Shown here: piece after piece, positions 2,408 through 45,183 of the stretch
Layout of the letters: each line of letters starts with the position of its first letter
Numbering within the stretch: the first letter of the stretch is position 1
Origin: Patescibacteria group bacterium
GTDB lineage: Bacteria; Patescibacteriota; Patescibacteriia; Magasanikbacterales; GWA2-37-8
DNA: 64,000 bases
Direction of reading: 5' to 3'
Assembly (NCBI GenBank): GCA_041661385.1
Contig: JBAZUP010000001.1
Location: forward strand, 354,560 to 418,559
Notes under the pieces: model-generated
What the model was told of the DNA's origin: nothing
Database searches by the model: none
The model's input: the letters and a program-made list of their open reading frames with translations, nothing else
Translations under genes and position numbers: made by a program

Positions 2408-2896
2408 TTATAATTTTATCATTCTCACTTCTAATTGATTGTCTTTGTTATAGAATCCGGTAAAAGTACCCTCCTGTTTAGCTTTCAAAGCTGAGATCCC
2501 AACTTCATTTTCGCCAAGCGTAATCTTGGTTTCTGGCAGAGAAAGAACAACTTGTTCAGTTGCACCATTATTCAAAATGGTTATTTTATTGCTTTCAACA
2601 GATAAAATTTCTCCATAAACCGAGACTGGCCTTTGCTCTGCTTTAGATTTATATATTAAACGTGGCAAGATTCTGTATCCTCCGACGGCTTTTTCTACAT
2701 AGTAACCGGCTTTAGCAAAACGGATTGCATCTTTTCGTTCTCGCAATGCTCTCGCGGTTTCAATTCCGACGCTAAATGTAAATACGAAACCAAGCACTAC
2801 CAGGACCCCAAAAAAGGTCCGTAAAGTTTGATGGCGATATTTACTAAACCACCCACAACATTTGTGGCCCCCCACGTGATTATTTTTATTTCGCAT
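2408..2896 (-). CDS. Hypothetical membrane-anchored protein
   Basis: 162 aa with an N-terminal hydrophobic helix (FFGVLVVLGFVFTFSV). No recognisable catalytic motif. Confidence 0.4.
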   Translation of the reverse strand: MRNKNNHVGGHKCCGWFSKYRHQTLRTFFGVLVVLGFVFTFSVGIETARALRERKDAIRFAKAGYYVEKAVGGYRILPRLIYKSKAEQRPVSVYGEILSVESNKITILNNGATEQVVLSLPETKITLGENEVGISALKAKQEGTFTGFYNKDNQLEVRMIKL

Positions 2897-3025
2897 ATTT
2901 AATTAAACTTAATAAACCTGGAGATATTATACACGAAAAAGACCCCAGTCGCAATTTTATCCACAAATTCAAAAAACCTAAAAAAGACCCTTGCGCCCCT
3001 CATAAAGATACATTACAATAAACCT

Positions 3026-3364: not shown

Positions 3365-4966
3365 TTAAGGGCTAACTCTAACCTTAACATTCGCGCAAGT
3401 GCCGTTGCCGGCGCAAACCGCTACCACTGCGTCACCTACATACTGTCCGTACAAAGTAACTTTATTATCAGCAGTTCCTACTTGAACCACATCAGAGTCG
3501 CTAAAGGCGGCAAGCCCTTTCGCGATTGAAGAAGTTAAGATGGTGGTCTGGTGTAAACCTAGGGCAATATTTGTTTCGCTAACCTGAATTGGTACTTTAT
3601 TAATTTCCGGGTTTTCATTTACAGTTACTGCCACGGTTCCGCATTTTAAAGTCGGTGTCGTCGGACAAACAGAAATCGTTGCCGTACCAACCGCAATACC
3701 CTGCAAACTTAAGCCGGTATCAATAATTTGTGCCGAAACAACATTCGCATCAGAATTATTAATTAAATAATACGCAGTCTGGTTGAGGTAAGGCAAAGTA
3801 ACTTTCAAGGTCTTGCTAGTATAAATAGTATACGATCCAAAAGTGCCGGGACTGAGTTTCTTTTTTGGCGGGTTTTCGACATTCACGCGAATTGGTACGC
3901 AGCCATTATTTTTACTGCATACATAAATTATAGCTGTACCCGGATAAGTCGAAGCAGTAATTAATACCAAATTTCCTTTTACTTTGGCGCTCGCTGACCA
4001 AGAATTTCCAGAAGCAGTTATATTTAAACCGTATTTAGTGCCAATCCAAATACTTTCACCGGTTTTCAAATCAACTTTACTTTGTGAAACTTGAAAATTT
4101 CCGGTTTTAGGATCAAGCACTCTTACATAAACAGAACCGCAAGAACCGCCCTCGTCGCAAATACCAACTGTCGCTTCACCGATATATGAAGCATACAAAG
4201 TAATTCGATTGCCGTTTACCGCCGTGCGCACTGCATCAGTATTGCTTATCGCCGTTAACGGCCTAGATGATTCTGCAGTTATATCAATGGTTTCTTTATT
4301 TAACAAAGTAGCGCTCACCTGGCTAAGCTTTAATATTTTTGATTCAACGATATTATCAGAACCGTTAACCGGAACAGTTTTTGCAATCGGTGATTCTAAA
4401 ACTTTTACAAATATCGGCAAACAGCCGCGGTTCGTACTACAAACCGTAACTGTCGCACTCCCGGCATACTCTCCGGTAATATAAACTCGCGCCCCATCAA
4501 CATAAACATTCACTGCGCCGGAATTTGTAAGCGCGGTAACATTTTTTCCATTATAAGTAGTAACGTAATAAGTCTGTTCAGTTTTAATGGTGATTTTAGA
4601 TTTGCTTAATTTAAAACTAAGATCTTTATTTTTTTGAACTTTAACATTTATTGATTGGCAGCCCAAATCATCATTACACACCCTAACCACCGCATTACCA
4701 ATTCTATTTCCATATAGCGTTACTTGGTTGCCGCCATACACTGAGGCGCGCACTGCTTTTGAGTTACTGGTAACTTTAAGGCTTCCCGCACTAAAAGAAA
4801 CCACCGTAATGCTTTGCTTTAAACCAAGCACTGCGCTAGTTTGAGTAATGCCGAGGGCGCTTTCTTCGGCCGAGGCAAAACTAGACGATATCAACATTAA
4901 AGCCAAAGCGGCGATAAAAACGCTTATTTTGGTCAAAATATGTCGATTTTTAGTGGCTTTTTCCAT
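3365..4966 (-). CDS. Secreted protein with six tandem ~85-aa beta-rich repeats, each ending in a two-Cys motif (V.VC....GC....V.V)
   Basis: Signal peptide (MEKATKNRHILTKISVFIAALALMLISSSFASA). Repeated C-terminal motifs VRVCNDDLGCQSINVKV, TVTVCSTNRGCLPIFVKV, TVGICDEGGSCGSVYVRV, IIYVCSKNNGCVPIRVNV, ISVCPTTPTLKCGTVAVTV, VVAVCAGNGTCANVKVRV. Confidence 0.55.
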   Translation of the reverse strand: MEKATKNRHILTKISVFIAALALMLISSSFASAEESALGITQTSAVLGLKQSITVVSFSAGSLKVTSNSKAVRASVYGGNQVTLYGNRIGNAVVRVCNDDLGCQSINVKVQKNKDLSFKLSKSKITIKTEQTYYVTTYNGKNVTALTNSGAVNVYVDGARVYITGEYAGSATVTVCSTNRGCLPIFVKVLESPIAKTVPVNGSDNIVESKILKLSQVSATLLNKETIDITAESSRPLTAISNTDAVRTAVNGNRITLYASYIGEATVGICDEGGSCGSVYVRVLDPKTGNFQVSQSKVDLKTGESIWIGTKYGLNITASGNSWSASAKVKGNLVLITASTYPGTAIIYVCSKNNGCVPIRVNVENPPKKKLSPGTFGSYTIYTSKTLKVTLPYLNQTAYYLINNSDANVVSAQIIDTGLSLQGIAVGTATISVCPTTPTLKCGTVAVTVNENPEINKVPIQVSETNIALGLHQTTILTSSIAKGLAAFSDSDVVQVGTADNKVTLYGQYVGDAVVAVCAGNGTCANVKVRVSP

Positions 4967-13223: not shown

Positions 13224-13796
13224 TTAAACCTTTAGCAAGCCGCGGAATCCTCTAACGCCATAATATGATTCCGCACCATTGTGATACACAAAGACCTGAC
13301 CATAGCGACAATCACAAAATAAAGCGCCGCCAAGTTTTCTAATTTCGGCGGGTGTCTTAACCCAACTTGATGTTTTCGTATCAAAATTTCCAAGCTTCTG
13401 CAACTCGCGATATTGTTCTTCGGTTAAAATCTCAATACCCATGCTCACCGCCATATCAATAGCATTATTTTTTGGCTTGTGTTCTTTTCTCGAATCTAGC
13501 GCTTCACGATCGTAACAAATACTTCTGCGATCAATCGGAGATTCCGCCGAACAATCATAAAAAATATATTCATCAGTTTTTTTATCAAACCCTACAACAT
13601 CCGGCTCACCGCCGGTTTTTTCCATTTCAAAGAGTGGCCACAATTTTTCTGGTTTGGCCTCCAGCTTTGATTGCACCTTTTTCCACTCAAGACCCTTGTG
13701 GCGCTTCATGTTTTTCTCAAAACGAACATTCAAAGTCTTTAGCAGTTCTTCGCCTTGTTCTTGTGGTAACTTCTTATTGTTATTAATTTTTGTCAT
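13224..13796 (-). CDS. DUF4256-like protein
   Basis: 190 aa. Motifs TGGEPDVVGFDKKTDEYIFYDCSAESP and KLGGALFCDCRYGQVFVYHNGAESYYGVRGFRG recalled as typical of DUF4256. The repeated leader element lies immediately 5' of this gene. Confidence 0.45.
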   Translation of the reverse strand: MTKINNNKKLPQEQGEELLKTLNVRFEKNMKRHKGLEWKKVQSKLEAKPEKLWPLFEMEKTGGEPDVVGFDKKTDEYIFYDCSAESPIDRRSICYDREALDSRKEHKPKNNAIDMAVSMGIEILTEEQYRELQKLGNFDTKTSSWVKTPAEIRKLGGALFCDCRYGQVFVYHNGAESYYGVRGFRGLLKV

Positions 13797-13797
13797 A

Positions 13798-13879
13798 TTC
13801 GAAATGAGTGAGCGAAATGTTTGGCTTGCAAAACATTTCCGAGCGAATGAGAATATATGTGGCGAAGCCCCTATATATA
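13798..13879. repeat. ~82-nt repeated leader element, copy 1 (conserved flanks, variable central hairpin)
   Basis: ttcgaaatgagtgagcgaa-[gaaatgttt ggcttgca aaacatttc]-cgagcgaatgagaatatatgtggcgaagcccctatatata. Near-identical flanks recur at 45026..45176. It sits 2 nt upstream of the start codon of the minus-strand gene (…TTCGAATATG). Confidence 0.6.
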
Positions 13880-13984
13880 ATTAATGGTAATAGGTATTAT
13901 ACGCCTGCAAATAAAAAAGGCCAGCATTTCTGTTGGTCGTTTTTTGCAGCGAGGATACGAAAAATTACGAAACGAATTTAAGGA

Positions 13985-14068
13985 TTAGGGCGGGCGGAAG
14001 GAGGCCTGCCCGCAATACTACGCATAGCGTTGCAGGCGGGGGTTTGGGGAGGAATTCCGCCCGCCCTG
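13985..14068. repeat. GC-rich structured element bounded by a perfect 13-bp inverted repeat (AGGGCGGGCGGAA / TTCCGCCCGCCCT)
   Basis: 55-65% GC segment inside a ~35% GC genome, with nested GC stems (gcctgc...gcaggc). Follows the stop of the minus gene 14093..15130, so it may act as a long-stem terminator. Confidence 0.4.
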
Positions 14069-14092
14069 GGGCCCGCGCGCTTTTTGACGATT

Positions 14093-15130
14093 TCAAGTTT
14101 TTCCGTTTTTATTGTTACTCGACATCACATTATTGTCCTGGCTGATGCCTAAATCAGAACTTGAATTAAACTCGTTCAAAACATCATTAATATCAACAAA
14201 TTGTTTAATTTCCGATTCGCCGCTTTCTAAATCTATGACAATGTGCCCCAAGGATGTTTTTACGGCATTTTGCTTTAGCGAATTTTCTCCCGACGAGTAA
14301 TTAGAATCATAATATCGTTTATCAACATCGGTTCTATTTTCATCTGAGTCTTCCTCTCTCCGTTTTTCGGAAATAATATTCAGCCTTGTTTTATTTCCCT
14401 TAATCTCTTGAAATAATCGCTCAGAAAAAGATGTTACCAGCCCGTGGTGTGGAGTAATTAAAAAATCAATTCCAATTTCATTCAGCTGGTTTTTGAATTC
14501 AGTATTGTTTTCAATCAAGTACTCCATACCTTCTTTTAGAATATCTCCAGGCATTAAAACGCTCTTAGCTTCTAATTGAATAAACAGAAGAAGGCTTATA
14601 TTATTTGCGTATCCGGGTTTTAAAATTTCAGAATTTCCACACTCATTTGGTTTAATATAGAACAATTTTACCACCTCTGGAATGGTTGAAACCAAGGGGT
14701 TGGACGGAGACATTCCGAAAGGGTTGCCAGGAACATTTGCAGTCCTTTTTTTCATATCAGAAAGTACCAACTTCCTAATTTCATTTTCTCCAGTAATAAA
14801 ATTAATAATTATTTTAAAAATACTATCTTGGGTTTCGTTGTCGTTCGGACAAGTCATGTAATTTGGATGAAATCTTTCCCTAAATATTTCATAATCAGAT
14901 ATGTGGTCATTATCCAAATGACTAAGAAACAACTGGTCTATGTAGAACTTGTCAGGACTACCAAAAGTATCCGCTTTTCTAAAGGATCGGCTGTGTGCCA
15001 AAGGAATCAAAAAATTTTCTACCGGAGAAAATTCGGAACTCTTTCCGAGATCAATTACCAATTTTTTATCATCAATTTCAGCATAGGATGACAATGCCCC
15101 GCCTACATTAAAAATTGCAATCTTTTTCAT
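14093..15130 (-). CDS. Degenerate MBL-fold (metallo-beta-lactamase-like) hydrolase
   Basis: 345 aa. N-terminal IAIFNVGGALSSYAEIDDKKLVIDLG. Motif SHLDNDH (H-x-D-x-D-H in place of HxHxDH). Late ITPHHG motif typical of ComEC/MBL hydrolases. Confidence 0.4.
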   Translation of the reverse strand: MKKIAIFNVGGALSSYAEIDDKKLVIDLGKSSEFSPVENFLIPLAHSRSFRKADTFGSPDKFYIDQLFLSHLDNDHISDYEIFRERFHPNYMTCPNDNETQDSIFKIIINFITGENEIRKLVLSDMKKRTANVPGNPFGMSPSNPLVSTIPEVVKLFYIKPNECGNSEILKPGYANNISLLLFIQLEAKSVLMPGDILKEGMEYLIENNTEFKNQLNEIGIDFLITPHHGLVTSFSERLFQEIKGNKTRLNIISEKRREEDSDENRTDVDKRYYDSNYSSGENSLKQNAVKTSLGHIVIDLESGESEIKQFVDINDVLNEFNSSSDLGISQDNNVMSSNNKNGKT

Positions 15131-22259: not shown

Positions 22260-22895
22260 TTATTTTTTAACAACTCTAACCACAACGCCATTAACAAAAT
22301 ATTTGCCATCCTCTACATCCTCTTCGTGGATCGTTATTGGCGGTGCGTCGTTATCCGTCTCAGAAATAAGTCTGATTTCATGCTTTGTATTGTCCTTAAA
22401 AAATTTCTTAATATTCGCGGCACCGTCAATTACCGACAAAACATAATTCCCGTTGCTGGGTTTTTGCTTGCATTCAACAACTACATAATCACCGGTTTCG
22501 ATTCCTTCTCCCTTAATGTTAGCGCCAGTCATAGAATCACCCACCGCTCTAACCGCAATGAGTCCGTCCGGCCGATATTGCCCAATTGATTTTTTAGAAA
22601 TTTTTAAATAGCCCTCAATATGAGTTTCGGCTAATTCTGTGGCTGGACCACAACTCGCTGATCCGACAATGGGAATATTAAAAAAGTTATCCACAGTATA
22701 CCCCTGGGGCTTTGCCACCCGCTGACGCTTATTGGAATCAAAATACAACAACCCCTTCTTCTTTAGCTGCTCTAGATTATATATGACGGACTGAGGATGT
22801 TTAACCCCGATTTCACGCATTATTTCCCTGAATTTCATATCAGAAATATCCTTTTTTTTGGCTAATTTTAGTAATTTTTCTTGTGTTTCGTTCAT
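22260..22895 (-). CDS. LexA-like repressor (winged-HTH + S24 autopeptidase domain)
   Basis: 211 aa. N-terminal wHTH (IMREIGVKHPQSVIYNLEQLKKKGLL). S24 catalytic Ser in AVGDSMTGANI and Lys in AANIKKF. First gene of the operon. Confidence 0.7.
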   Translation of the reverse strand: MNETQEKLLKLAKKKDISDMKFREIMREIGVKHPQSVIYNLEQLKKKGLLYFDSNKRQRVAKPQGYTVDNFFNIPIVGSASCGPATELAETHIEGYLKISKKSIGQYRPDGLIAVRAVGDSMTGANIKGEGIETGDYVVVECKQKPSNGNYVLSVIDGAANIKKFFKDNTKHEIRLISETDNDAPPITIHEEDVEDGKYFVNGVVVRVVKK

Positions 22896-22970
22896 AAACC
22901 TATATTTTATCGGTTTTTTAAATATAATGCCTGCTATAAATTCAGCGGGGCTGATACCCCATCGGTTATA

Positions 22971-22999
22971 GTATATTATAAATGATTTATAATGTCAAG
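22971..22999 (-). promoter_or_regulatory. Sigma70-like promoter for the lexA-like operon with a 17-bp palindromic operator in the spacer
   Basis: In minus orientation: TTGACA – ttataaatcatttataa (17 nt) – TATACT. The spacer is a perfect inverted repeat TTATAAAT c ATTTATAA (22977..22993). Confidence 0.45.
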
Positions 23000-23015
23000 A
23001 GATTTTTTAACACCC

Positions 23016-23044
23016 TTGACACCAATCAAAACCGAGCGTACAAT
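23016..23044 (+). promoter_or_regulatory. Divergent sigma70-like promoter for 23077..23553 (TTGACA-17-TACAAT)
   Basis: cTTGACAccaatcaaaaccgagcgTACAATc, about 30 nt upstream of the ATG at 23077. Confidence 0.45.
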
Positions 23045-23076
23045 CTTTATAAGCGCTAAAAACTAACAACACAACT

Positions 23077-23553
23077 ATGAAACTAGTAATTTCCCAAGCC
23101 AAACCAAACCCGACCGGCAAGGACCGTCCCCCGTTTGGATCAATCCTGCCGTTTCAGTTAGCGGCGGAATGGATTGATATTACCAACTCCGACAATGCAA
23201 GCATAAATCTTAATGGCCTTCAAATATATAATCTTTCCTATACGAACGGAACAGCACAATGGAGAATTGTTCGTGAATTTAATCTTGGCAACAAATGCAT
23301 GTTGCCACCGGGAAAAACTGTAAGACTGCACTCTGGAAAAGAAATATCAACAAATACAATGCGAACTGAAGATCAACTCGGCACCAACTACCATCTTTTC
23401 ACCGAATATAATAATTACATTTGGAACAATAAACAAATTGATAGGCCATGTATTTTTAACCCCTCCACAAAAGCAACATTAGACGTAACCCAATATAACC
23501 CGCCTGTCCCCGATGGAAAAATTTTAAAAAGATATGGAGACTTTCTTATTTAA
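23077..23553 (+). CDS. Lamin-tail-domain (LTD)-like protein
   Basis: 158 aa. LVISQAKPNPTGKDRPPF…AAEWIDITNSDNASINLNGLQIYN…KTVRLHSGK follows the LTD pattern (NP.G.D..EWIEL.N....v.L.G..L). Confidence 0.45.
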   Translation: MKLVISQAKPNPTGKDRPPFGSILPFQLAAEWIDITNSDNASINLNGLQIYNLSYTNGTAQWRIVREFNLGNKCMLPPGKTVRLHSGKEISTNTMRTEDQLGTNYHLFTEYNNYIWNNKQIDRPCIFNPSTKATLDVTQYNPPVPDGKILKRYGDFLI

Positions 23554-23654
23554 CTCTTAAATAATCGCTTGATGATTACAATTTACTTTTGGTAGAGCAA
23601 TCTAAGGAATAAAATGATTTTGATTGGTTTTTAGATACCGTGACTGGTATTCGT

Positions 23655-23720
23655 TGAAACGAGCGCTCGCCTTTCTACAACACCCTTGGTGTTTTAGTTG
23701 GGCGGGCGCTTTTTTTAAAG
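23655..23720 (+). terminator. Long-stem GC-rich terminator (gcgctcgcc…ggcgggcgc + T7)
   Basis: 9-bp GC stem with a ~39-nt loop, followed by ttttttt after the + gene 23077..23553. Shares the GGGCGGGCG motif with the element at 13985..14068. Confidence 0.4.
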
Positions 23721-23755
23721 GTCGAAAATATAATTAACTAAAAAATTTAATATAT

Positions 23756-25084
23756 ATGATTAATACAAAACTTAACATCGTGGAAGTTCCGGTCAACGAA
23801 CTTCGAGCGTCGGAATACAATCCACGCAAACATTCTAAAGAACAATCCGACCAGCTTAAGAAATCAATTGAGCGCTTCGGCCTCGTGGACCCAATCATTT
23901 GTAATAACGCACCGGAGCGAAAAAATATCATCGTTGGCGGCCACTTTAGAGCCGAAGTAGCCAAAGAGTTAGGCCTGACCACGGTACCTGTAGTGTATGT
24001 CTGTATTACAGAGATACAAAAGGAACAGGAGCTTTCAGTCCGTCTTAACAAAAATACCGGGGAGTTTGACCTTGATCTCCTAGCAGAATTTGACGAAGCC
24101 TTCCTAGCCGATGTCGGTTTTGATAGCGAAGAGATAGATGACATCTTTCCTACTGAGGTAAATACCGAGATGTTTGACTTGAAAAAGGAACTAGAAAAAT
24201 TAAATATCCAAGAAATTACCGTACAGAAAGGAGACACTTACGAATTGAACGGCTCTCGCCTCCGGTGTGGCGATTCAACAATTGAGGCGGATGTTATTAA
24301 ACTTATGAATGGCGAAAAGGCCGACATGTGCTTTACCGATCCACCATATATCCTTGATTACCTCAAAGGTAAAACAAAAAATAAGGATGGAGTGACCGTT
24401 GGCTTTGGCGCTAAAAAGAATCGTCGCTACCTTGAAACCGACGAACTGCCACCAGATTTTACGGAAAAATGGATAGCTAATATTAACAAGGTTGCCAAAG
24501 AGAGCTTTGCCATCATTGTTTATGAGAACTGGAAGAACCTTCGGATTATTTGGGGCGAGCTTGAGAAATATTGGAAAGTAAAAAATATGATTGTTTGGCA
24601 CGTCCCTAATCGGATGCAAGGATTTTCAGCTAAAAATAAATTCTTTAATAAACACGATATTGCCATGGTCGGGGCGTCGGAAGACAAAGCGCTTGAAGCA
24701 GAAGATGAAGGCGAACTGCTTGAAAATGAATATGAGACGGCGCTCTACGCCATTGCTGGCAAGCCACATTGGGAATCCTACGAAACCGGCAAAAAAATCT
24801 GCCCGACCGATTTTATAGATTATAAGGCGGCTGACGAAAAATCATCAGGACAAGGTGTAATCTTTGGAACCAAACCAACCGAAATCCTTATCCCCTACAT
24901 TAAAGTCCTTACCAAGCGAAACGATCTGATCGTTGAACCTTTCGGTGGTAGTGGTTCAACCCTAATTTCAGCGATTAAGATGAATCGCCGCTGTTATATC
25001 ATGGAAAAATCACCAGTTTACACCGAAGTCATTTTGAAACGCTGGGAAAAAGAAACTGGAGAAAGACCAAAGAAAATCAACTAA
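23756..25084 (+). CDS. ParB-like nuclease N-terminal domain fused to an N6-adenine/N4-cytosine DNA methyltransferase
   Basis: 442 aa. ParB/Srx motif (VNELRASEYNPRKH, IIVGGHFR). MTase motif IV TDPPY and motif I EPFGGSGST. Confidence 0.75.
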   Translation: MINTKLNIVEVPVNELRASEYNPRKHSKEQSDQLKKSIERFGLVDPIICNNAPERKNIIVGGHFRAEVAKELGLTTVPVVYVCITEIQKEQELSVRLNKNTGEFDLDLLAEFDEAFLADVGFDSEEIDDIFPTEVNTEMFDLKKELEKLNIQEITVQKGDTYELNGSRLRCGDSTIEADVIKLMNGEKADMCFTDPPYILDYLKGKTKNKDGVTVGFGAKKNRRYLETDELPPDFTEKWIANINKVAKESFAIIVYENWKNLRIIWGELEKYWKVKNMIVWHVPNRMQGFSAKNKFFNKHDIAMVGASEDKALEAEDEGELLENEYETALYAIAGKPHWESYETGKKICPTDFIDYKAADEKSSGQGVIFGTKPTEILIPYIKVLTKRNDLIVEPFGGSGSTLISAIKMNRRCYIMEKSPVYTEVILKRWEKETGERPKKIN

Positions 25085-25085
25085 T

Positions 25086-25670
25086 ATGATCGACGACAAG
25101 ACAAAACTAAACCTTCTAAAAGAAATCCAAAAAAACGGTAACGTTAGTTTGTCTTGCATTAGAATTAATATTGATCACGCAACCTATTATCGCTGGAAAA
25201 AAGAAGATAAAGAATTTCGTAAAAAAGCCAACGAGGCTGAAACTATCGGAAGAAAAAATAATTGTGACCTGGCGGAGCACGCTTTAATACTTCTGGTAAA
25301 GGAAAAAAAGATAGAAGCTGTCAAATATTTACTAAGCCACAATTCACCCAGGTACAAACCAAAAACAACGAACGCTGTAATACTACATAAATCTTTACCA
25401 AAATTAGAACCAGTACCGACAAGAACCCTGGAGGATCTGCTGGTCGAGGATGGTGAACAGCGCAGAGAAAGATGCGTTAGTATCCAGAATAAATTTCTCG
25501 CCTTAGGCGGTGTTCCACCTAAGGCTGATGGATCGCCAATTGAATTTCACGAACTAATTGATTATGAGATATATATTGAGGAGTGGTATAAGAAGAAAGA
25601 TATTGATGACGAAAAGAAAAATATACCGACTACTGAGTATCAAAAAATTTCACCATTAACAAACGGCTGA
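25086..25670 (+). CDS. Phage terminase small-subunit-like HTH protein
   Basis: 194 aa. N-terminal LKEIQKNGNVSLSCIRINIDHATYYRWKKEDKEFRKKANEA resembles the TerS/homeodomain-like HTH. Confidence 0.4.
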   Translation: MIDDKTKLNLLKEIQKNGNVSLSCIRINIDHATYYRWKKEDKEFRKKANEAETIGRKNNCDLAEHALILLVKEKKIEAVKYLLSHNSPRYKPKTTNAVILHKSLPKLEPVPTRTLEDLLVEDGEQRRERCVSIQNKFLALGGVPPKADGSPIEFHELIDYEIYIEEWYKKKDIDDEKKNIPTTEYQKISPLTNG

Positions 25671-25673
25671 AAT

Positions 25674-26381
25674 TTATTTATATACTTCAAGTGACCCACC
25701 AAAAGCCGTGACCTCAGCCACCTTTTCATTAGATTGTACATCGCGAATTTCAAGGTGTTTAAAACCAGTTATCTCCTCCTTCAGCATTGCTAGCTTTGCA
25801 AGAATATCTTTTTTGAAAGTAACTTTTTGGGAATACCAAGCAGGACCGACGTAAACGACGCTTGCTGTTTTGGAAAACTCATATGAATCAAAAAGGCCAG
25901 CTTGTTTACCTAGATTAATTAGTTCATCCAGCTCCTTCTGTGCCTCTTCCTTTGGACGGGCTGTCTGCACTGTTGTAACTGCTTCAGTTTTAACTTGACT
26001 ATCCTTATTAACTTGCTCAGGGGTTGTACTCACAACAATTTGTTTATCCTGAATTTTAACTAAGGATTCCGGTTCTTTTTTTACTTCAGGAGCAGCGACA
26101 CCAATCATAATCAGAGAAACAAAACCCAACAAGCCAAATATTAAGGTTAATTTTTTTCTATTTGGCTGTGATTTAAAAAATCTTGTAAACAAAGACGGCT
26201 TGGCAAGACCAATAAACCAAGCAATTATTGATCCAAAAAATATAAAACCAAATAACGTTTGCATACTTATTTTAATAATTAAATAAATAAAGCCGACCTT
26301 TAGATAAGCCGGCATGAAACACAAAACCCCACGCCAGCTGGGCTTTTTACGGCCCCATACACCTTTCGATGTATGACTCAA
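25674..26381 (-). CDS. Hypothetical membrane protein (true start possibly at 26264, Met40 MQTLFGF…)
   Basis: TM helices followed by a Thr/Lys-rich linker and a C-terminal soluble domain. The first ~39 codons overlap a terminator-like palindrome and are probably not coding. Confidence 0.4.
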   Translation of the reverse strand: MSHTSKGVWGRKKPSWRGVLCFMPAYLKVGFIYLIIKISMQTLFGFIFFGSIIAWFIGLAKPSLFTRFFKSQPNRKKLTLIFGLLGFVSLIMIGVAAPEVKKEPESLVKIQDKQIVVSTTPEQVNKDSQVKTEAVTTVQTARPKEEAQKELDELINLGKQAGLFDSYEFSKTASVVYVGPAWYSQKVTFKKDILAKLAMLKEEITGFKHLEIRDVQSNEKVAEVTAFGGSLEVYK

Positions 26382-26385
26382 CTAA

Positions 26386-26428
26386 GAATAGCTGAACGTG
26401 GAGTTCAGTGTCTTAGTTGAGTTTCGAA
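26386..26428. repeat. Long imperfect inverted repeat (actcaactaaga…tcttagttgagt) in the intergenic region 5' of the serine recombinase
   Basis: 12-bp arms plus 5-bp inner arms (ctgaac/gttcag). Candidate recombinase att core, operator or part of a structured RNA. Confidence 0.35.
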
Positions 26429-26639
26429 GCACCATGCCTAGAGGTTATCTGGGTTTAGGTACTTGGCCTTCCAGCCTGAATTGTCAATGACATTTTAGCT
26501 AAATTATAGCCAAATGTCCAGCACATAATAGCTTAGAATAGGTGCTTTGCGAAGCTTAGTTATCTACAGTTTGTCTACTAGGGGCTCTGGACTAACTAGC
26601 GGGGTCTGCGTCATTAATGTCTATGAGATAATATAATCT

Positions 26640-27932
26640 ATGGACCAAATCACAGCCCCTCCTACCCAATATTGCCTATACGCCCGTAAGTCGTCCGAAT
26701 CAGACGAAAAGCAGGCCCTTTCAATAGATTCCCAGATCAAAGAGATGACCAAACTAGCCGAACGGGATGGACTCTATATAAAGGAGATTAGGCGAGAAAG
26801 TCATTCGGCCAAGGCTTCGGGGCAAAGGCCGGTATATAACGAGTTGATTGAGGATATTAGGAAAGGGTTATTTACCGGTATTTTAACTTGGGCACCGGAT
26901 CGGCTGAGCAGAAACGCCGGCGATCTGGGGTCGTTAGTTGATCTAATCGACCAAAAACTACTTCACGAAATACGAACCTATGGTCAAAAATTTACCAATT
27001 CCCCTAACGAGAAATTTCTATTAATGATTCTGGGAAGTCAGGCAAAACTTGAAAATGATAACCGAGGCTTAAACGTAAAACGAGGTCTGAGAGCAAAAGT
27101 GGAGATGGGTCTGTGGCCTGGAGTGGCGCCAATCGGGTATTTGAATGAAAAACGAACGGATCGAAAATGCCACATTGTCATAGACCCTTTAAGAGCACCG
27201 ATTGTAAAAAAGATTTTTGAGAAAGCGGCAAATGATGGCTGGAGCGGTCGACAAATTCATGCTTGGTTAAAAAATGATTTAAACTTTAGATCAAAAAACA
27301 ATAAATATTTTGCCTTAAGCAATTTATACTTAATGCTTAGGAACACTTTTTACTACGGGTCACACGAATACCCAAAAGGGAGTGGCAATTGGTATACTGG
27401 GAATCACCAGCCTATTATTTCGAAAGAGCTTTTTGAGAAGGTTCAGGAAAGAATGTTGGATTATCAAGTCGGAAAAAGTAAAAGTAAAGAATTTGCCTTT
27501 ACCAAACTAATCACATGCGGACTATGTGGATCGGGTATTACCGCTGATGAAAAATTTAAAAAACAAAAAAATGGCACCATCCATCGCTACGTATATTATG
27601 GTTGTACAAAATACAAAGACTTAAATTGCAAATTAGGCTATATGAGAGAAGAAGATTTACTAAACCAAATACTTGAACTGATTGACAAAATTTCTCTGGA
27701 GGAGCTCGGGATGAAAGAAAAAATTGTAAAAGAAGTTGAACGGTATCATAAATTTCAATCGGGAGTTATGGGAATCAATCCTGAACAAAAAGAAAAACAA
27801 AAAAGGATTGATATTAAAAATTATGCCAAGTTTATTTTAAAAGAAGGGCAGGTGTTCGAAAAAAGAGATTTGTTGTCAAATTTAAAAAGCCATCTCACCC
27901 TTGAGAATAAATTATTAAACTTAAAAAATTAA
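26640..27932 (+). CDS. Large serine recombinase (integrase)
   Basis: 430 aa. Resolvase-type N-terminus with catalytic Ser (CLYARKSSESDEKQALSIDSQ). Recombinase domain and C-terminal zinc-ribbon/coiled-coil (CGLCGSGITADEK…YYGCTKY). Confidence 0.85.
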   Translation: MDQITAPPTQYCLYARKSSESDEKQALSIDSQIKEMTKLAERDGLYIKEIRRESHSAKASGQRPVYNELIEDIRKGLFTGILTWAPDRLSRNAGDLGSLVDLIDQKLLHEIRTYGQKFTNSPNEKFLLMILGSQAKLENDNRGLNVKRGLRAKVEMGLWPGVAPIGYLNEKRTDRKCHIVIDPLRAPIVKKIFEKAANDGWSGRQIHAWLKNDLNFRSKNNKYFALSNLYLMLRNTFYYGSHEYPKGSGNWYTGNHQPIISKELFEKVQERMLDYQVGKSKSKEFAFTKLITCGLCGSGITADEKFKKQKNGTIHRYVYYGCTKYKDLNCKLGYMREEDLLNQILELIDKISLEELGMKEKIVKEVERYHKFQSGVMGINPEQKEKQKRIDIKNYAKFILKEGQVFEKRDLLSNLKSHLTLENKLLNLKN

Positions 27933-27938
27933 TTTACT

Positions 27939-30900
27939 TTATTGAGATTTAAATGTCGCTATTATGGCAGCCCACGCATTGCTGGCAGATGTTGTGAATT
28001 TTGCAGCGGTTGTGGTAGCTATTGCTATGACTCTGTCTTCCGAGGCTAAACGTTGGTATGTACTAACTCCATTCACCAATTCTGTTTGACGAATTGTATA
28101 ACCTGAACCCGCCGTCCAGGAATTATTATTCCCAGCGCTCCATGCAAGCCCAAAATATAATTCATTTGTTGAAGTGGTTGTAATGTTGCCCGAACTAGGC
28201 GTAACTGAAGACCCTGTACCAGACATTGTCTTGTCTAACGGATTCGTTGTGTTTATTCCGGCATACTCATGAACCGCTAGCGTACCTGTGACGGTTGACG
28301 AAACAGTAAAACCTGATCCACCAATAACATTTTTCGCATAAAATATTGCAGCTCGATACGAATTTTTTACTGCCTCAGCGGCTTTATAATAAGTATTACC
28401 CTTATTGTCTGTAATTGTGCTGGTTGGAAAAGTGACATTATAGGCTGTAATTCCAACTACCACCAAATTACTTCCGACGACGGAGCCGGAAAAAGCAACT
28501 GATTTAGAACCGTGTGCTTTTTGACTTTGAATATAAGATGGTGACCCAGCAAGCGAAAAAGTTGACGTTGTTGTGCTCCACCCACCAGCCAACCCACCAA
28601 CGTCTTCAAAAGCAATACGCCAATAATAAATAGTACTTGAGACAAGTGCTGACCCCGCATAAGTAATTTCTGGACTTCGGCTGTTCTCGGTTGTCGTCGC
28701 CATCGTTGTAGTGCCAGAATCCCATTTTATAACCGTAAACGAACTAGAAGTTGAAACCTGGATACGATATTTGTTGGCCTGATCACCGGAATTAAGATCC
28801 GTATAAATTGCCGAGAATTTTGGCGTGCTTGTTAAGTTTGATGGATTAACAAGACCTTGAGTCAATGTGCTGGTTGGAACGGTTGGTGCGGTGTTCAATG
28901 AAAATGTTGAAGTGGCTGTGCTCCAGGCACCTACCAAGCCGCCCACATCAACAAACTCAACACGCCAATAATAAATAATGTTCGTCGCTAGAGCCGAACC
29001 TGTATAGAGTATGTCCGGACTCCTGTTTCCCTCTGTAGTTGTTACCATCGTTGTAGTGCCAGAATCCCATTTTATACTGGCAAAAACGCTCGAGGTTGAA
29101 ACTTGCAGACGATGCCTATTTGCTTGGTCTCCGGCATCTGGATCGTTATATATTGCTGAAAACCTTGGTGTAGTCGTTGCAATATTTGTTGGGTTAGTTT
29201 GACCTTCGACAAGCATGTCTGTTGGTGCGGCAGGTGCACTATTTAAGGAAAAAGTAGAAGTTTCCGCGCTCCAAGCACCGGGCAGACCCCCAACATCAAC
29301 GAGGGAAATTCGCCAATAATACACGATACTTGATGCAAGGGTTGAACCGCCATATGTAATGTCCGGAACTCTAGTTCCCGATGTCGTTGTCGCCATTGTC
29401 GTCGTGCCAGAGTCCCATTTAATATTTGAAAAAATACTTGAAGTTGAAACTTGAACGCGATACTTGTTAGCGGTATCACTCAAATCTAGATCGTTATAGA
29501 TCGCGGAGAATTTCGGCAAACTAACCATGAGGTTGGCTGGGTTAGTTTGATTTTCAGTCCAAAGTGCGGTGGGAGCAACCGGGGCTCTATTTGGGGGAAT
29601 GGTTTCAAAATAATCTTTTCCATTAGTCCATTGACCTTCATTGTCATCATTGTCCCATAGCTTAATCCGCCAATAATATTTAGTCCCATTCTGTAAACCC
29701 GACCCACCATAAACAATGTTAGGGATTCGACTGCCCGCGGGAGTATTTTCCGAAAATGTCTGTCTCCCGGAATCCCAAAACGGCGAAGTAAAGCTACCAC
29801 CACTTTGAATTAATTGAATCTGATAGCTATTCGCAGTTGAGCTTGCATCGAGTGATTCGTAGATTGCACTAAACTCTGGCGTTGAAGTTATTGTAATGAT
29901 TTGTTTTGGCACTAGACTAACGTTATCTACTTGGAAAGTATGGGCAATTCTACCCAGATAGAAAGTTACACGAGCATTCGAATCTCCCTGAGACGGGTTT
30001 ACTTCAAAGGAATATGATTGCCACGAAGGATTTACGGAAAAATCAGACCATGTTAAATCAGCATACGGATCGTGGTTTTGTGTCAAAACAACTGTCTCAG
30101 TTGTTGAAACGCTCGATTTGGCATCAAACTTAAGTAGGTAGGTAGTTGAAGTGTTAGCAATTAGATTCTGGCTTAATTGAACTTGATAGTGTTGTCCACT
30201 GTAATTCACAATAGTTTTGTTTGAACAATTTCCATCACTACCCTCCGAACAATCGACTGAATTGGTCGCTTGTGGGTCACCATTTTGTGACCAGAAATAC
30301 CAATTATTCATGCTCGTTTCAAAACTTGGATTCTTAATTAGGCTTAAATTATCTGGTGTAACTTCTACGTCTTCCAGCCAATAACTATTTATGTTGGTAC
30401 CAACATAATAGAAAACTCTAGCCAACTCATCGGTTCCATTGCTGGTAAAAGTAAACGCATACTGTTTCCAGTCTGGAGTAATTGAAACACCGGCGGCAAG
30501 GCCAAAATCTGACCAAGGACTATGGTCTTGATTAACACCAAAAGTAATTGTTGAGGTGGTGGTCGCCTTAGCTCTGAATTTAACTGTATAATTAATCCCA
30601 GTATCTACTCTTAAATCTTGCCAGAACTGGGAATCCCATACATTACCGGCACTTGAAACAATAATTTTCTGAGAACAGTTGCCAGTAAATGATACTGTGC
30701 AATCAACCGTATTTGTTCCACCATTACCAGACCAAAATTTCCAGTAATTTGTGGACCCATCTTCAAAACTATTATCATAAATTACATTATCACTTCTCAT
30801 GAGTCCTAAAGTTTGCAGATTTCTTGATTCCGATGGATTAATCATCAAAGACAAAACAAATGTTGAGGTATTAGCACTCCAGACTCCTTCATTATTAACT

Positions 30901-33900
30901 GAGTCCCAAAACTTAATACGCCAATAATAAACGGTGCTCGAAGATAACGGTGCTCCGGAATAAATTATATCTTGAATACGATTACCCCTAGTTGTCGAAG
31001 CCATTGTTGAAGTACCTGAATCCCAACTTGTTGATGAGAACAAGCTTGAAGTTGATACCTGTATCCTATATTTATCCGAGGCATCATCAGTATCTGGATC
31101 ATTGTAGATTGCAGAAAAAATCGGCGTGCTAGTAACTTTCGTCGGATTTGAAGAATTATTAACTAAGAGCCCTGATGGTTGCGACGGTGGTGCATTAATA
31201 ATTTCTTCCTCACCCAGAGCACCTACAACTGGCTCTGGATAAACTATCGGTCGAACCCTTAGGTCATAAAAATTAACCGTTTCGGTCGCACCCGTTCCGA
31301 CATGTACTGAAAAACTAAGCACATAAGGACTTGTGGTCGCACTGAAAGATGTGGACCCGCACGTAGTAGAACCTAATTTAAGTGTATATGTTCCTGAATC
31401 AGCATTAACATTAACACTACCTAAATATGGACCGCCATTAACCGGTTCACAAGCCTGAACACCGTTTGACCACCACCCCGATGATAGGCTCGCAAATGGA
31501 GAAACGTCAACTGAAGATGCTTCACCAATTCTTGCATTAAACATTGAAGATTTCCATTCGGGATGCTGTATATAATTATCCATTGTCATGTTAAATTCTG
31601 CAATCCGATTACCTGAAAAAGTCGGAATAGTTTGAACGTCCTTGCCATCATAATAAGCACTATACGCATGAAAATATAAATTTCCATCACCCTCTGTTGG
31701 CAAACCCACATTTTGACCATACCCCCATAATGTTCCATCAATTATTGAGTCACTAAAATCATCAAAAAATTCAAAGGCATTCTTACCGTTATTTGCGTAA
31801 CTCCCGGCAAGGCGGGCGCTGGGATTACCATAATACATGTAGATTGTGGTTCCTCCAGGTGGTATTGAATTTATTTTTACCCAAATCTTCGCTGACGATG
31901 TATTAGCCTCGGACTCAACCCACCACGGTAATTCTTTATCTTGTGAGTCAACAAAACGAAGATCAGCTAGATTTGACTGCATTTTTCCCATCGAAATTAA
32001 CGAGGCGGCATCGGCAATTACTGGCACGCTATATGCCACCAATGTTGAAGTAGAACCAGAAATTTCAATTGGTCTTTTATAATGCCAAGAACCACCATCG
32101 GGATATGACAAACCACCGCCAACACAAGAATCATTCTCTAATTCCTCAGCTCCCGCAGAACCCGCCGTTGGCGTCGATGAAACAAATGATCGTACTCGGA
32201 AATCCCGAAAATTAACAGTTCCCCAACCATCACCCACTTGATCGGCAAAATTAAAAACATATGGATCAGTGGTCGTAGTAAAAGAAGCGACCCCACAGGT
32301 AGTTGTGTTTAATTTAAACGTAAATTGACCCAAGTTGTTATCAACTGCAACACTTCCTAAATAAGGACCCCCATTAACGGCAGCACAGTCTTGCACTCCA
32401 TTTGACCACCACCCGGACGATTTAACGGCCCACGGAGAGTTAAATACTGTCGAGCTACTACCAATGCGGGCAGCAAAAAAAAGCGACTTCCAGTACTGAT
32501 TTCCCGGTACCATGTCCATTGTCATGTTGAACTCAGCAATCTTACTCCCAGAAAATGTTGGTACGGTTTGGATTTCCTGGCCACCATCATATGTTGAATA
32601 AACATAGAAAGCCATAAGCCCACTGTTTTCGCTTGGCAGACCGTATCTTTGACCGGGACCCCACAAATTTCCATCAAAACTTTGATCTTCAAAATTATCA
32701 AAAAAATCAAAAGTATTACTACCATTATTGGCATAACCACCACCTGACATGGCGTCTAAATTACCATAATGCATATAAATCGTCGTACCACCGGACGGAA
32801 TAGAATCAACTTTTACCCAAATCTTAGTTGCAGCAGAATTGACTCCAGATTCCACCCACCACGGTAGCTCATTGCCGGTAGAATTAGAAAAACGGAGATC
32901 GCCTAAATTTATTTGCATTTTTCCTGCTCCTACCAAAGAAGCGGTGTCGATGGTAACTGGCACTACATAGCCAGTTTGAGTTCCCTGATTTGAACCAGTA
33001 ATTTGTATCGGTTTTTTATTTAACCACAACCCACCACCTGAATCAGAGAACTGGTCAAACAGACACGATGAAGAAGTTGATATTGAAGAAGTGAAGTTAC
33101 CGGTTGAGCTCCAGGCCCCCTCATCGCCGCCCTTGTCCCACAGTTTAATACGCCAATAATAGGTGGTACTAACTCCAAAGGGAGGACCGGAATACTCAAC
33201 TTCTTCGATTCTCGATCCGGGCGTGGTTGAGTTGGTTAAATGAGTTTTTAAACTATCCCATTTCAAAGAGGTAAAAGCCGGAGAATAACCAACTTGAATT
33301 CGGTAATGAGTTGCCAAATCAGAGCTGCCACTCGGATCATTATATATAGCGGAAAACTTTGGCGTACTAGTAATCTCGGAGGGATTGCTTAAACCATTAA
33401 TTTGAATGTCCGTTGGTGCTGATGGCGGAAAATGATTTATCGTAACCTTATTGTTGGAATAAACCATTGTACACGTGTTAACCCCGTCGCAGACGACCGC
33501 CCTAATATAAAATGATCCCTTACTTATCGCTGAAGTATCCCACTCATATTGCTGCAGAATATCATTTGTCTTAAATATTCCAATTAAACCGTTATGACCG
33601 CTTAAATCTTGATCAACATCTTTATATAAATAAATGTCGGGGTTATCCTCATCGTCTTTAGCATTCCATCTAATTGTGTACTTTAAATCAGCCTCGGATG
33701 GCACTAAAGTTGAGGGTGCAATAAATGAAAAGGTTGGCGGAGAATTTCCGGGGACTATTTCAAATGGCCCCCAAGGTGTTGAGGTTGTTTGTTTACCACT
33801 ATAATCGCGGACTACAACCTGCAATTGATAATCAGTACCAAGCAAGTTGTCTGGAATATGCCAATTATATGTCATCGTCTGATAAAGCGGGCCGTCCTGA

Positions 33901-44277: not shown

Positions 44278-45024
44278 TTATTTCAGCTGAGCAACCAATT
44301 CTGACCAGGTTTCGATTTTTGCGGAAGCGCCGCCAACCAAAACCCCAGAGATATGCGCTCGCTCTAAATAGCGGCCAATATTTTCTCCGCGCACGCTGCC
44401 GCCATACAAAATTACCGGTTTTTTATTAATTAATTTTTCCGTCCAATTGCTTATCATTTCGGAAGCTTTTTCGGCCTCCCCTGGTTCACATGATTCGCCG
44501 GTACCAACGGCCCAAACCGGTTCATACGCAATAATTGGTGTAATATTTTCCGGCCAGGAAATATCCATAAAAGCCGCCCGGATTTGCGCTTCTAACACTT
44601 CAGCTGTTTCATTCTTTTTTCGATCTTCCGCAGTTTCACCCACACAAAGCACCGGCGTAAGAGAAAGCTGAAGCAAAGCATCGAGCTTCATTCGCACATC
44701 ATGATTACTTTCTTTAAAAATATGACGGCGTTCGGCATGCCCTACCAAAGCGTGAGTGCAGCCGATTTCTTTATAGGTAGTTGAGGAAACTTCTCCGGTA
44801 TAACCGCCCTTATCCGCCCAAAAAGTATTTTGCGGCCCAACAAACATTTTACTTTTTTGAAGAATTTTTTTGACCGATTCAATCGCGATCGAAGACGGAA
44901 AAACCGCCACCTCGACGGATTTTGCCGGATACTTTAGTTTGGCATAATCCTTCGCCAGTTTCACACTTTCTTCAACATTCAAATACATCTTCCAATTGGC
45001 GAAAAGATAGATTTTTTTGTCCAT
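44278..45024 (-). CDS. tpiA: Triosephosphate isomerase
   Basis: 248 aa. Catalytic motifs NWKMY, ALVGHAERR and IAYEPVWAVGTGES. Confidence 0.9.
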   Translation of the reverse strand: MDKKIYLFANWKMYLNVEESVKLAKDYAKLKYPAKSVEVAVFPSSIAIESVKKILQKSKMFVGPQNTFWADKGGYTGEVSSTTYKEIGCTHALVGHAERRHIFKESNHDVRMKLDALLQLSLTPVLCVGETAEDRKKNETAEVLEAQIRAAFMDISWPENITPIIAYEPVWAVGTGESCEPGEAEKASEMISNWTEKLINKKPVILYGGSVRGENIGRYLERAHISGVLVGGASAKIETWSELVAQLK

Positions 45025-45025
45025 A

Positions 45026-45176
45026 TTCGAAATAAGTGAGTGAAGTATTAAACTTGTTTAATTACTTCCGAACGAATGAGAATATATGTAATATAATCGA
45101 AATAAGTGAGTGAAGTATTAAACTTGTTTAATTACTTCCGAACGAATGAGAATATATGCGGCGAATCCCATATATA
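45026..45176. repeat. Repeated leader element, copies 2 and 3 in tandem (71-nt period; proximal copy lacks the GGCGAAKCCC-TATATAT tail)
   Basis: ttcgaaataagtgagtgaagtattaaacttgtttaattacttccgaacgaatgagaatatatg occurs twice in tandem; the distal copy ends …cggcgaatcccatatatat. Flanks match the copy at 13798..13879. The central hairpin sequence differs but keeps its pairing. The element abuts the tpiA start codon in the same arrangement (…TTCGAATATG). Confidence 0.6.
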
Positions 45177-45183
45177 TTTTATA

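Follow-up and report, generated by a model that had tools for sequence, protein, structure and literature searches.

A probable strand-specific, mobile hairpin repeat abutting the start codons of unrelated genes in Patescibacteria

The 64,000-nt stretch of Patescibacteria DNA that we analysed (hereafter the window) carries a repeated, hairpin-forming element immediately in front of the start codons of two genes on its minus strand, a DUF4256 gene and tpiA. An earlier note on this DNA had described one copy at each of the two genes and had read them as a conserved leader. The repetition itself was borne out, as each flank motif occurs 3 times in the window, compared with 0.00 and 0.12 occurrences expected from shuffled sequences. 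The count required amendment: the copy at 13798 stood as described, but the supposed copy at 45026-45176 proved to be a tandem pair, with a 70-nt duplication. In total the window holds three units, of which one precedes the DUF4256 gene and the other two, in tandem, precede tpiA; an nhmmer search found no additional copy in the window. The relevant features are as follows.

13224-13796, minus strand: DUF4256 gene
13794..13796, minus strand: ATG start codon of the DUF4256 gene (CAT on the plus strand), the left junction of the insert
13797..13874, plus strand (the folding strand): element unit A, reading ATTCGAAAT...GGCGAAGCCCCTAT
13797-13874, plus strand: unit A as read directly after CAT, ATTCGAAATGAGTGAGC...GAGAATATATGTGGCGAAGCCCCTAT
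13795..13856, plus strand: hairpin P1 of unit A, from a predicted fold, covariation and the strand test
13795-13800 paired with 13851-13856, plus strand: basal helix of P1, unit A
13814-13822 paired with 13831-13839, plus strand: central stem of P1, unit A
13823-13830, plus strand: loop of P1, unit A, which includes GCTTGC
13855..13874, plus strand: hairpin P2 of unit A, ATATG-TGGC-GAA-GCC-CCTAT
13896..13901, minus strand: TATAAT, a -10-like box read from the sequence, upstream of unit A
13919..13938, no strand assigned: terminator-like hairpin with T runs on both sides, between the upstream gene and the putative promoter plus element
44278-45024, minus strand: tpiA gene
45022..45024, minus strand: ATG start codon of tpiA (CAT on the plus strand)
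45025..45094, plus strand: element unit B1, proximal to tpiA, with P1 and a degenerate mini-P2 (ATATGTAATAT), ending in TAT
45095..45171, plus strand: element unit B2, distal, with P1 and P2 (ATATGCGGCGAATCCCAT), head-to-tail after the terminal TAT of B1
45172..45183, minus strand: native 12-nt spacer, from the M16 peptidase stop codon (45184-45186) to the original tpiA ATG position

Both ATGs are genuine starts, since the DUF4256 Pfam domain begins at residue 18 of its protein and the TIM domain at residue 7. The element had been placed 2 nt from these codons; the actual distance is 0, with the element touching the ATG, and the GAAT in front of each ATG belongs to the element, as the 3' strand of its basal helix. 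Unit A, which scored 94.7 bits with the covariance model R1 described below, has three GA/GA internal loops in its P1 arms and a GNA triloop in P2 on the plus strand. Its right end is of the CCT type, that is, the upstream copy of the ATG has been lost, and at the end of unit B2 the start-codon triplet occurs a second time, as CAT (45169-45171). As judged from its position, the TATAAT box would put unit A within a transcribed 5' UTR, the complement of the unit then being part of the 5' UTR of the DUF4256 mRNA.

The element is not, as first supposed, a leader common to two unrelated genes. It belongs to a family that is confined to Magasanikbacteria-type Patescibacteria, with about 190 further units in Magasanikbacteria, other Patescibacteria MAGs and groundwater metagenomes, and the set of genes that it precedes differs between related genomes. 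We carried the search for the flank motifs beyond the window, as the earlier note had proposed: a gapped pattern of both arms matched exactly at 49 places in 48 stretches of GTDB genomes, which came almost without exception from Candidatus Magasanikbacteria or other Patescibacteria MAGs, and a one-arm pattern matched 73 metagenome stretches, mostly from groundwater. A covariance model (R1), another proposal of that note, recovered 68 copies from 419 kb of these loci and 91 from 409 kb, diverged copies included. A few of the pattern matches carry the labels 'Gammaproteobacteria' or 'Udaeobacter'. Viral contigs gave 0 matches to the element pattern, and a phage origin was rejected on that ground. 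Comparison with Rfam returned nothing in the window at gathering score and, for both loci at E up to 10, chance-level matches only (E 0.5-8 and 14-19 bits, as against gathering scores of 35-100). Two readings of the GA-rich arms were likewise discarded, a hammerhead-like one for want of a stem II and a K-turn for want of a 3-nt bulge. A literature search found no description of this element.

Each unit, ~85 nt in length, is built of two hairpins: P1, which is long and imperfect, and P2, which is short. Read as mRNA, P2 comes first, followed by P1 (conserved arms enclosing a variable, co-varying central stem) and then by GAAT-ATG. The consensus of the opposite, folding strand is 5'-(CAT)^ATTCGAAATGAGTGAG-N-(variable stem-loop)-CGARCGAATGAGAAT-ATATG-(GC core)-C(A/C)T^AT-3', where the carets mark junctions. 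The basal helix of P1 is ATATTC/GAATAT, and its arms, ATTCTCATTCGYTCGG and CNCTCACTYATTTC, are almost invariant and have a 7-8 nt direct repeat within them; the arm on the ATG side was conserved even where the search pattern left that arm free. P2, which reads TATATG/TATAGG-GGC-loop-GCC-N-CATAT in the mRNA sense, is present in every copy as an ATAT...ATAT hairpin.

As the earlier note had seen, the central stems at the two loci of the window are unlike in sequence and both can pair (GAAATGTTT/AAACATTTC and GAAGTATTAAAC/GTTTAATTACTTC, respectively), and its suggestion that the pairing is selected was confirmed across the family. All 11 central-stem pairs carry compensatory changes. Over the whole structure we counted 131 double-change cells, compared with 32 ± 5 in shuffles (0/500 as high) and, as a further control, with 28-56 when the pairing partner was slid by 1-3 columns. 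Compensation in diverged copies extends to the basal helix (ATATAC/GTATAT, ATAAAC/GTTTAT, ATTTTC/GAAAAT, ATTTGC/GCAAAT and ATATTT/AAATAT) and to one arm pair, in which GC/AC is replaced by AT/AT. These results show that the pairing of the element is under selection.

About 78-80% of the copies lie directly against a true ATG, the genes being unrelated housekeeping genes, and about 80-90% share a common orientation to the adjacent start codon. The ATG lies exactly 4 nt past ...ATTTC in 41 of the 52 pattern copies and opens an ORF of at least 50 codons in 40 of those 41; in the metagenome set, 68 of the 87 unique copies have ATG in the same register, and 12 have ATA there. Random orientation and location, which the earlier note had associated with a MITE, were thus not seen, the ATG junction and the orientation being fixed in 41/52 and 68/87 copies. 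The downstream proteins include a response regulator, GlpX, DnaG, TrmD, the ribosomal proteins L34, L17, L11 and L20, NifU, bactofilin and glycosyltransferases, and also LigA, MnmA, HisRS, RecA, TatD, MurB, Sua5, Dus, an ABC ATPase, a resolvase and TpiA. They are functionally unrelated, and no coherent gene set was found among them. Their Pfam domains start at residues 1-35, in about half of the cases within the first ten residues.

On the other side of the element, the upstream gene runs in the same direction in 35 copies, where its end is often within a few bases of P2, and diverges in 16; the distance between P2 and this gene is variable, and the junction is exact on the ATG side only. A TGnTATAAT-like box, also at variable distance, lies upstream of P2 in many copies. 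Read in this way from the sequence, the element would be transcribed as a 5' UTR or as intercistronic RNA. Some 8-10% of the copies are inverted within operon spacers, for example between murJ and lepA. Simple scans detected no promoter or terminator inside the element, and no ncRNA gene was found directly adjacent to the copies that lack an ATG; one weak, diverged copy was seen ~70 nt upstream of a tRNA. A Shine-Dalgarno sequence is absent from most genes of the window. The 16S rRNA tail is canonical in a relative, and the 3' arm of the element was noticed to resemble the 16S tail.

Comparison of related genomes revealed orthologous sites both filled and empty, from which it follows that the element is an insertion. 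Three related genomes, with flanks 80-86% identical, illustrate this. L055 has an empty site (...GCCAT^AGATTT..., i.e. GCCAT^AGATTTAC), and L074 has the corresponding filled site (...GCCAT^ATTCGAAAT...GAAGCCCAT^ATAGTT... or, in a longer reading, ...GCGGCGAAGCCCAT^ATAGTTAT...), in which the insert lies exactly between CAT and the native upstream DNA; L064 has one unit plus a second, partial unit. At tpiA, synteny with the M16 peptidase gene is kept in four relatives, in which TpiA is 67-72% identical. This junction is empty in L122 and L125 (TAA and ATG separated by 13 and 9 nt, respectively), holds a single unit in L123 and a decayed unit in L124, and in the window holds two units and the 12-nt native spacer. 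Related genomes also alternate with each other, in that the element is found at the response-regulator gene where it is absent from ligA, and vice versa; similar alternation was observed for rpoA and rplQ. The same central-stem lineage occurs at different genes (rplK in L021 and hisS in L032), one and the same genome can have near-identical copies at different genes (L009/L023 and L014/L020), and tandem, nested, truncated and interior-deleted variants were all encountered. Together, these observations show an insertion with exact boundaries, located 3' of CAT and in one orientation, and they show gain, loss, tandem duplication and decay at orthologous junctions. The DUF4256 protein has its closest relatives in other phyla, which precluded a comparison of filled and empty orthologues at this gene; the gene was probably acquired horizontally.

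Orthologous copies, once in place, are better conserved than third codon positions: in 3 pairs, conservation was 0.82-1.0 in the central stem, compared with 0.61-0.78 at third codon positions. This conservation in situ could reflect either a host function or gene conversion.

The 2 strands of the element differ from each other in their potential to fold. On the complement of the mRNA, all three internal loops of P1 read 5'-GA/5'-GA and could form tandem sheared pairs; the corresponding loops of the mRNA are UC/UC, and in the lower part of P1 the mRNA strand has UC/UC and C·A mismatches one after another. G·U wobble pairs were more numerous on the complementary strand than on the mRNA strand in P1 of the genome set (61 vs 12), in the whole structure of the metagenome set (128 vs 31) and in the central stem alone (33 vs 7). 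Most P2 loops of the complementary strand are of the GNA type (GCGAAGC), and GCUUGC is frequent among its central loops. This strand was also the more stable one in 76/77 copies, by a mean of 5.6 kcal/mol as calculated with RNA parameters. Known mutation asymmetries do not predict such a pattern, as the wobble asymmetry expected from a C-to-T bias of the exposed coding strand is opposite to that observed.

These results bear directly on the reading of the element as a selected mRNA structure or gene-specific regulator, which in its fullest form would be a host cis-regulatory 5' leader, acting on the mRNA strand to tune initiation or mRNA stability of a set of growth genes. Much in the position of the element would suit such a leader. 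It lies exactly against genuine ATGs, and its location downstream of -10-like boxes or as the filling of intercistronic spacers suggests that it is transcribed in this sense. The AUG falls at the foot of P1, inside the basal helix AUAUUC/GAAUAU, CAUAU can pair either with the upstream AUAUG at the foot of P2 or with the start codon, and the UCAU/UCAC motifs in the pyrimidine arms could be protein sites (e.g. for KH-type proteins, S1 or Rho). Conservation of orthologous copies exceeds that of synonymous sites and upstream DNA, the loss of the upstream ATG from half of the copies suggests that the mRNA is read, and the scarcity of Shine-Dalgarno sequences in these genes makes an unusual leader conceivable. 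Yet the genes concerned are unrelated in function and vary as a set between related genomes, the inverted copies in operon spacers do not fit, and the wobble pairs, the GA/GA loops and the loop motifs all favour the other strand, for which no antisense promoter was found. Nor was there an excess of complementarity between the arms and 16S rRNA, for which the longest runs were 8-10 nt and the shuffled-arm means 9.5-10.2. We regard a host leader of this kind as unlikely, if still worth bearing in mind.

It is also conceivable, to a similarly limited degree, that the element spreads as a mobile cassette and is kept for a generic host role at operon junctions. P2 might then serve as a terminator, insulator or 3' stabiliser, the central hairpin as a 5' stabiliser and GAAU-AUG as a portable, Shine-Dalgarno-independent start context, which could be useful, for example, to newly acquired genes such as the DUF4256 gene. 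The conservation in situ is consistent with such a role, as are the replacement of the whole intercistronic spacer in many operons and the presence of the element in front of the DUF4256 gene with its probable horizontal origin. In addition, GAAT-ATG mimics the preferred (A/T)AT-ATG context, which was seen at 19/52 starts. Against this, the element contains no canonical terminator or promoter, and spacers of 9-13 nt suffice for the relatives at the tpiA junction.

Strand-specific structural signals on the GA-rich strand would also be expected of a cis-antisense small RNA that is transcribed from within the 5' end of the gene and folds into P1-P2. We found no conserved promoter, however, in the 80 nt on the gene side, which contain ~0 bits of information and in which -10-like hexamers are scattered and present in 28/91 copies; moreover, the transcription start would fall within coding sequences that are unrelated to each other. 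For lack of that promoter, we consider a dedicated antisense RNA very improbable. Slightly more improbable still is a double-stranded DNA operator of a global transcription factor, with direct-repeat half-sites CTCATT(C/T) in the arms: the arms are indeed nearly invariant and contain the direct repeat, but duplex binding needs neither a co-varying palindrome between the half-sites nor compensatory changes between the arm ends, and strand asymmetry in wobble pairs is not expected of it. Least credible of all is a box C/D-like or TIGR-type stem-loop guide RNA bound by a Nop or L7Ae-type protein, to which the tandem G·A pairs beside the terminal stem, the AUGAGUGA / AUGA motifs and the reported presence of TIGR-Tas systems in Patescibacteria might point, but which is opposed by the lack of a 3-nt bulge and hence of K-turn geometry, by would-be spacer positions that are conserved and mutually paired (the 'loop' being the variable part), by the dispersal of units before housekeeping genes instead of in an array beside a tas gene, and by the lack of a promoter on the GA-rich strand.

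The simplest remaining reading, in our view, is that the constraint acts on single-stranded DNA of the complementary strand, and the ends of the element may be considered with that strand in mind. Of 77 copies, 71 have CAT as the left flank and 6 have TAT. The right-end triplet is CAT in 30 copies and CCT in 36 and is uncorrelated with the triplet of the left flank, for which reason a classical target-site duplication was rejected; with this mix of CAT and CCT, a 3-bp duplication and an element-borne site are indistinguishable. As seen on the mRNA strand, the start codon is seemingly duplicated at the outer edge of P2 (TATATGGGC), and this upstream ATG is lost in about half of the copies (TATAGGGGC). 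The preference for starts is only partly explained by a bare CAT target, which predicts, on the basis of the 115 non-coding CAT sites and 41 ATG starts of the window, that ~26% of non-coding insertions would lie at starts, whereas ~78% was observed; extra selection or an unrecognised targeting cue is needed.

With an approximate IS608 TnpA query, which makes for a weak test, tblastn searches for an IS200-like TnpA in 828 kb around the copies gave a best E of 0.75. No transposase or recombinase was found adjoining the atypical copies, and no long version with cargo between P1 and P2 was found. Throughout the window the plus strand has a negative GC skew, and the genes lie on the minus strand; by these 2 indications, the folding (plus) strand would be the leading-strand template.

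We propose that the element is probably a non-autonomous, strand-specific mobile hairpin repeat that joins 3' of CAT by way of single-stranded DNA, an explanation to which we give about an even chance of being correct. The element would move, or would have moved, as single-stranded DNA of the folding strand, in a manner resembling 'peel-and-paste', and the internal ATATG linker between P1 and P2 could pair both with the target CAT and with the right-end CAT of the element itself. Because the target CAT is the complement of ATG, the folding strand would lie antisense at gene starts, and the mRNA would then bear the weak UC/UC version of the structure, less stable by about 5.6 kcal/mol. Insertions at gene starts would be tolerated, with the ATG retaining an AAT-ATG context, and insertions at CAT within genes would be purged. 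Head-to-tail tandems would be expected, since each unit ends in a new CAT or TAT that is itself a target. The element would thereby become the 5' UTR or the entire intercistronic spacer, tolerated as a leader and possibly exapted. A more far-reaching version, which we offer tentatively and consider unlikely as it stands, is that this is a new kind of single-stranded DNA element of CPR bacteria whose ATATG 'guide', by pairing with CAT, directs insertion to the template-strand side of start codons, which is mobilised by an unrecognised enzyme and which has been domesticated as a Shine-Dalgarno-independent leader or spacer. If true, it would be the first transposon with the initiation codon as its natural target, rewiring the expression of core genes.

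Several known systems invite comparison with a strand-specific mobile hairpin. In the IS200/IS605 family only the top strand is used and the ends are hairpinned; base pairing identifies a short specific sequence, and the left end is always inserted 3' of it (PMC5027513, PMC5934647). For IS608-type elements, the preferred template is that of the lagging strand (PMC5027513). Our element resembles this family and its miniature derivatives (PATEs), all of which move by 'peel-and-paste' transposition of a single strand, in having folding signals on one strand, hairpins at both ends and no long terminal inverted repeats; in the joining of one end 3' of a short specific sequence in a single orientation; in an internal sequence that can pair with the cleavage or target sequence; and in the possibility of head-to-tail arrays. 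It differs from IS200/IS605 in that its target is of 3 nt (CAT) and theirs of 4-5 nt, in that P1 and P2 are dissimilar and the cleavage sites would fall inside helices, and in that no TnpA was found within the 828 kb covered by our approximate query. Unlike that of IS608, its folding strand is apparently the leading-strand template, if the direction of replication is as gene orientation and skew suggest. An association with start codons is, to our knowledge, not a property of the IS200/IS605 family.

REPs and REPINs are imperfect palindromes, short and abundant, that lie outside genes and fold into hairpins when single-stranded, and REPs are long-lived at orthologous sites, where compensatory changes keep the hairpin (PMC3116915, PMC8266576). 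The REP/REPIN-RAYT system is therefore similar to ours in its short, hairpin-forming palindromes, their persistence and their compensatory changes. It is dissimilar in that the consensus of our element has no 5' GTAG, its units are single or head-to-tail and form no inverted doublet, and no RAYT-like gene lies near the copies; also, REPs are found mostly after genes, whereas this element lies against start codons in fixed orientation.

Other small repeats have features in common with the element. The Correia elements of Neisseria and ERIC, classical MITEs near genes, are non-autonomous intergenic repeats of roughly 100 nt that are co-transcribed with their neighbours and have orientation-dependent effects. 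Such MITEs are bounded by long terminal inverted repeats, duplicate a symmetric target (TA) and are found in both orientations; in contrast, the element has a terminal complementarity of 6 bp (ATATTC/GAATAT), an asymmetric junction triplet and a fixed orientation. Putative mobile promoters and transferred regulatory regions are homologous upstream regions that precede non-homologous genes. Like them, the element is an upstream cassette that recurs before unrelated genes within and between genomes, but it contains no promoter, and its boundary is nucleotide-exact at the ATG. Integron attC sites similarly have conserved flanks around a variable palindromic centre, fold on one strand and lie between consecutive genes; here there are no RYYYAAC/GTTRRRY cores, and the copies stand singly before core housekeeping genes and not in cassette arrays. 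In summary, this is a REP/MITE/PATE-like repeat that is set apart by its choice of target and its strand logic. Such repeats are common, and we know of none that joins start codons nucleotide-exactly in one orientation.

The family carries a warning for annotation, as what looks like a conserved, co-varying 'leader' of unrelated genes can in fact be a mobile element with a structure selected on the opposite strand. With the covariance model at hand, it also provides a cheap marker for strain-level turnover. If the targeting is mechanistic, by base pairing with CAT on one strand, it would represent a new rule of target choice, possibly reprogrammable in the way that the IS608 target is. For the tiny genomes of Patescibacteria, the finding means that operon junctions of 9-13 nt are replaceable by structured spacers of 90-150 nt, and such spacers before recA, ligA, dnaG and ribosomal protein genes bear on how translation is initiated in organisms that are poor in Shine-Dalgarno sequences.

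Besides the main form of the element, a hairpin-forming repeat that abuts the ATG of many unrelated genes, we observed a subfamily with other arms (TTCGYTCGYTCGG ... CTCACTTTRCTTGAAAAT) in three of the loci fetched from other genomes and metagenomes, where it stands without an ATG. Its fold is identical to that of the main element, with the purine-purine loops on the same strand, and the L005 copy is a tandem pair located in a convergent spacer after trmD. Structural variants were found at four further loci.

Copies of the subfamily and structural variants
L005, 2755-2920: subfamily, tandem pair
L033, 612-705: subfamily
L039, 7391-7483: subfamily
L105, 70-198: structural variant
L058, 1368-1497: structural variant
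L011, 2674-2803: structural variant
L017, 2184-2234: structural variant

Within the variant set we observed a nested form, in which one unit lies inside the central loop of another; enlargement of the central loop by long insertions; and, in a copy upstream of a gene, deletion of the interior of P1 (the long imperfect hairpin) between CTCATT direct repeats of both arms. A diverged copy in L003 is flanked by two copies of a tRNA 5' fragment, CTGCGGGTATCATATA, just upstream of an intact tRNA gene; the fragment occurs there in three direct copies (2740-3000, minus strand).

A survey of all gene starts of the window showed that most genes lack a Shine-Dalgarno sequence and are preceded by an A/T-rich context; ATATG stands at 19 of 52 starts. 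The 16S tail of a relative (L005, 4074-5697) is canonical, CACCUCCUUUCU. Since TATAAT lies no more than about 15 nt from the ATG at several window gene starts, the leaders of these genes may be short or absent.

The DUF4256 protein (window 13224-13796) shares about 80% identity with proteins that carry the labels Acidobacteria, Ignavibacteriae, Planctomycetaceae, Bacteroidetes and Methanoperedens, which suggests that its gene was recently acquired horizontally. This acquired-looking gene has the element in front of it.

The otherwise minus-strand window is interrupted by a plus-strand gene block which, together with an adjoining LOOT RNA, looks like a small integrated element. Three very large ORFs also occur in the window.

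Putative integrated element and large ORFs of the window
22260-27932, plus strand: gene block encoding a LexA-like protein (minus strand), a ParB-N6/N4 DNA methylase, an HTH_Tnp_1_2-like protein and a large serine recombinase
26340-26461: LOOT RNA (RF03000, 67 bits), overlapping the start of ORF 25674-26381
27939-36965, minus strand: ORF, 3008 aa
37618-41319, minus strand: ORF, 1233 aa
49840-55587, minus strand: ORF, 1915 aa

Immediately past the stop of ORF 14093-15130 (minus strand), a GC-rich stretch of ~110 nt (13975-14090) within AT-rich spacer is predicted to fold very strongly whichever strand is read, at about -49 to -53 kcal/mol. It had no Rfam match and no copy among the fetched loci, and may represent either a small RNA or a structured 3' element. 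In L027, where ligA is without the element, a separate stretch upstream of this gene (1780-1880; CTCCCTCCCCTTTTAGGGGAGGGG...CCCCCTAATAGGAGG) is also GC-rich and resembles a repeat.

The Patescibacteria-like locus L039 also contains a SAM riboswitch (3786-3896; RF00162, 69 bits). Several element-bearing MAGs have 'uncultured Gammaproteobacteria' or 'Candidatus Udaeobacter' as their title (L004, L006, L008, L010-L012 and others; L007, L041). These titles look wrong, because gene content and the element suggest that the MAGs are Patescibacteria.
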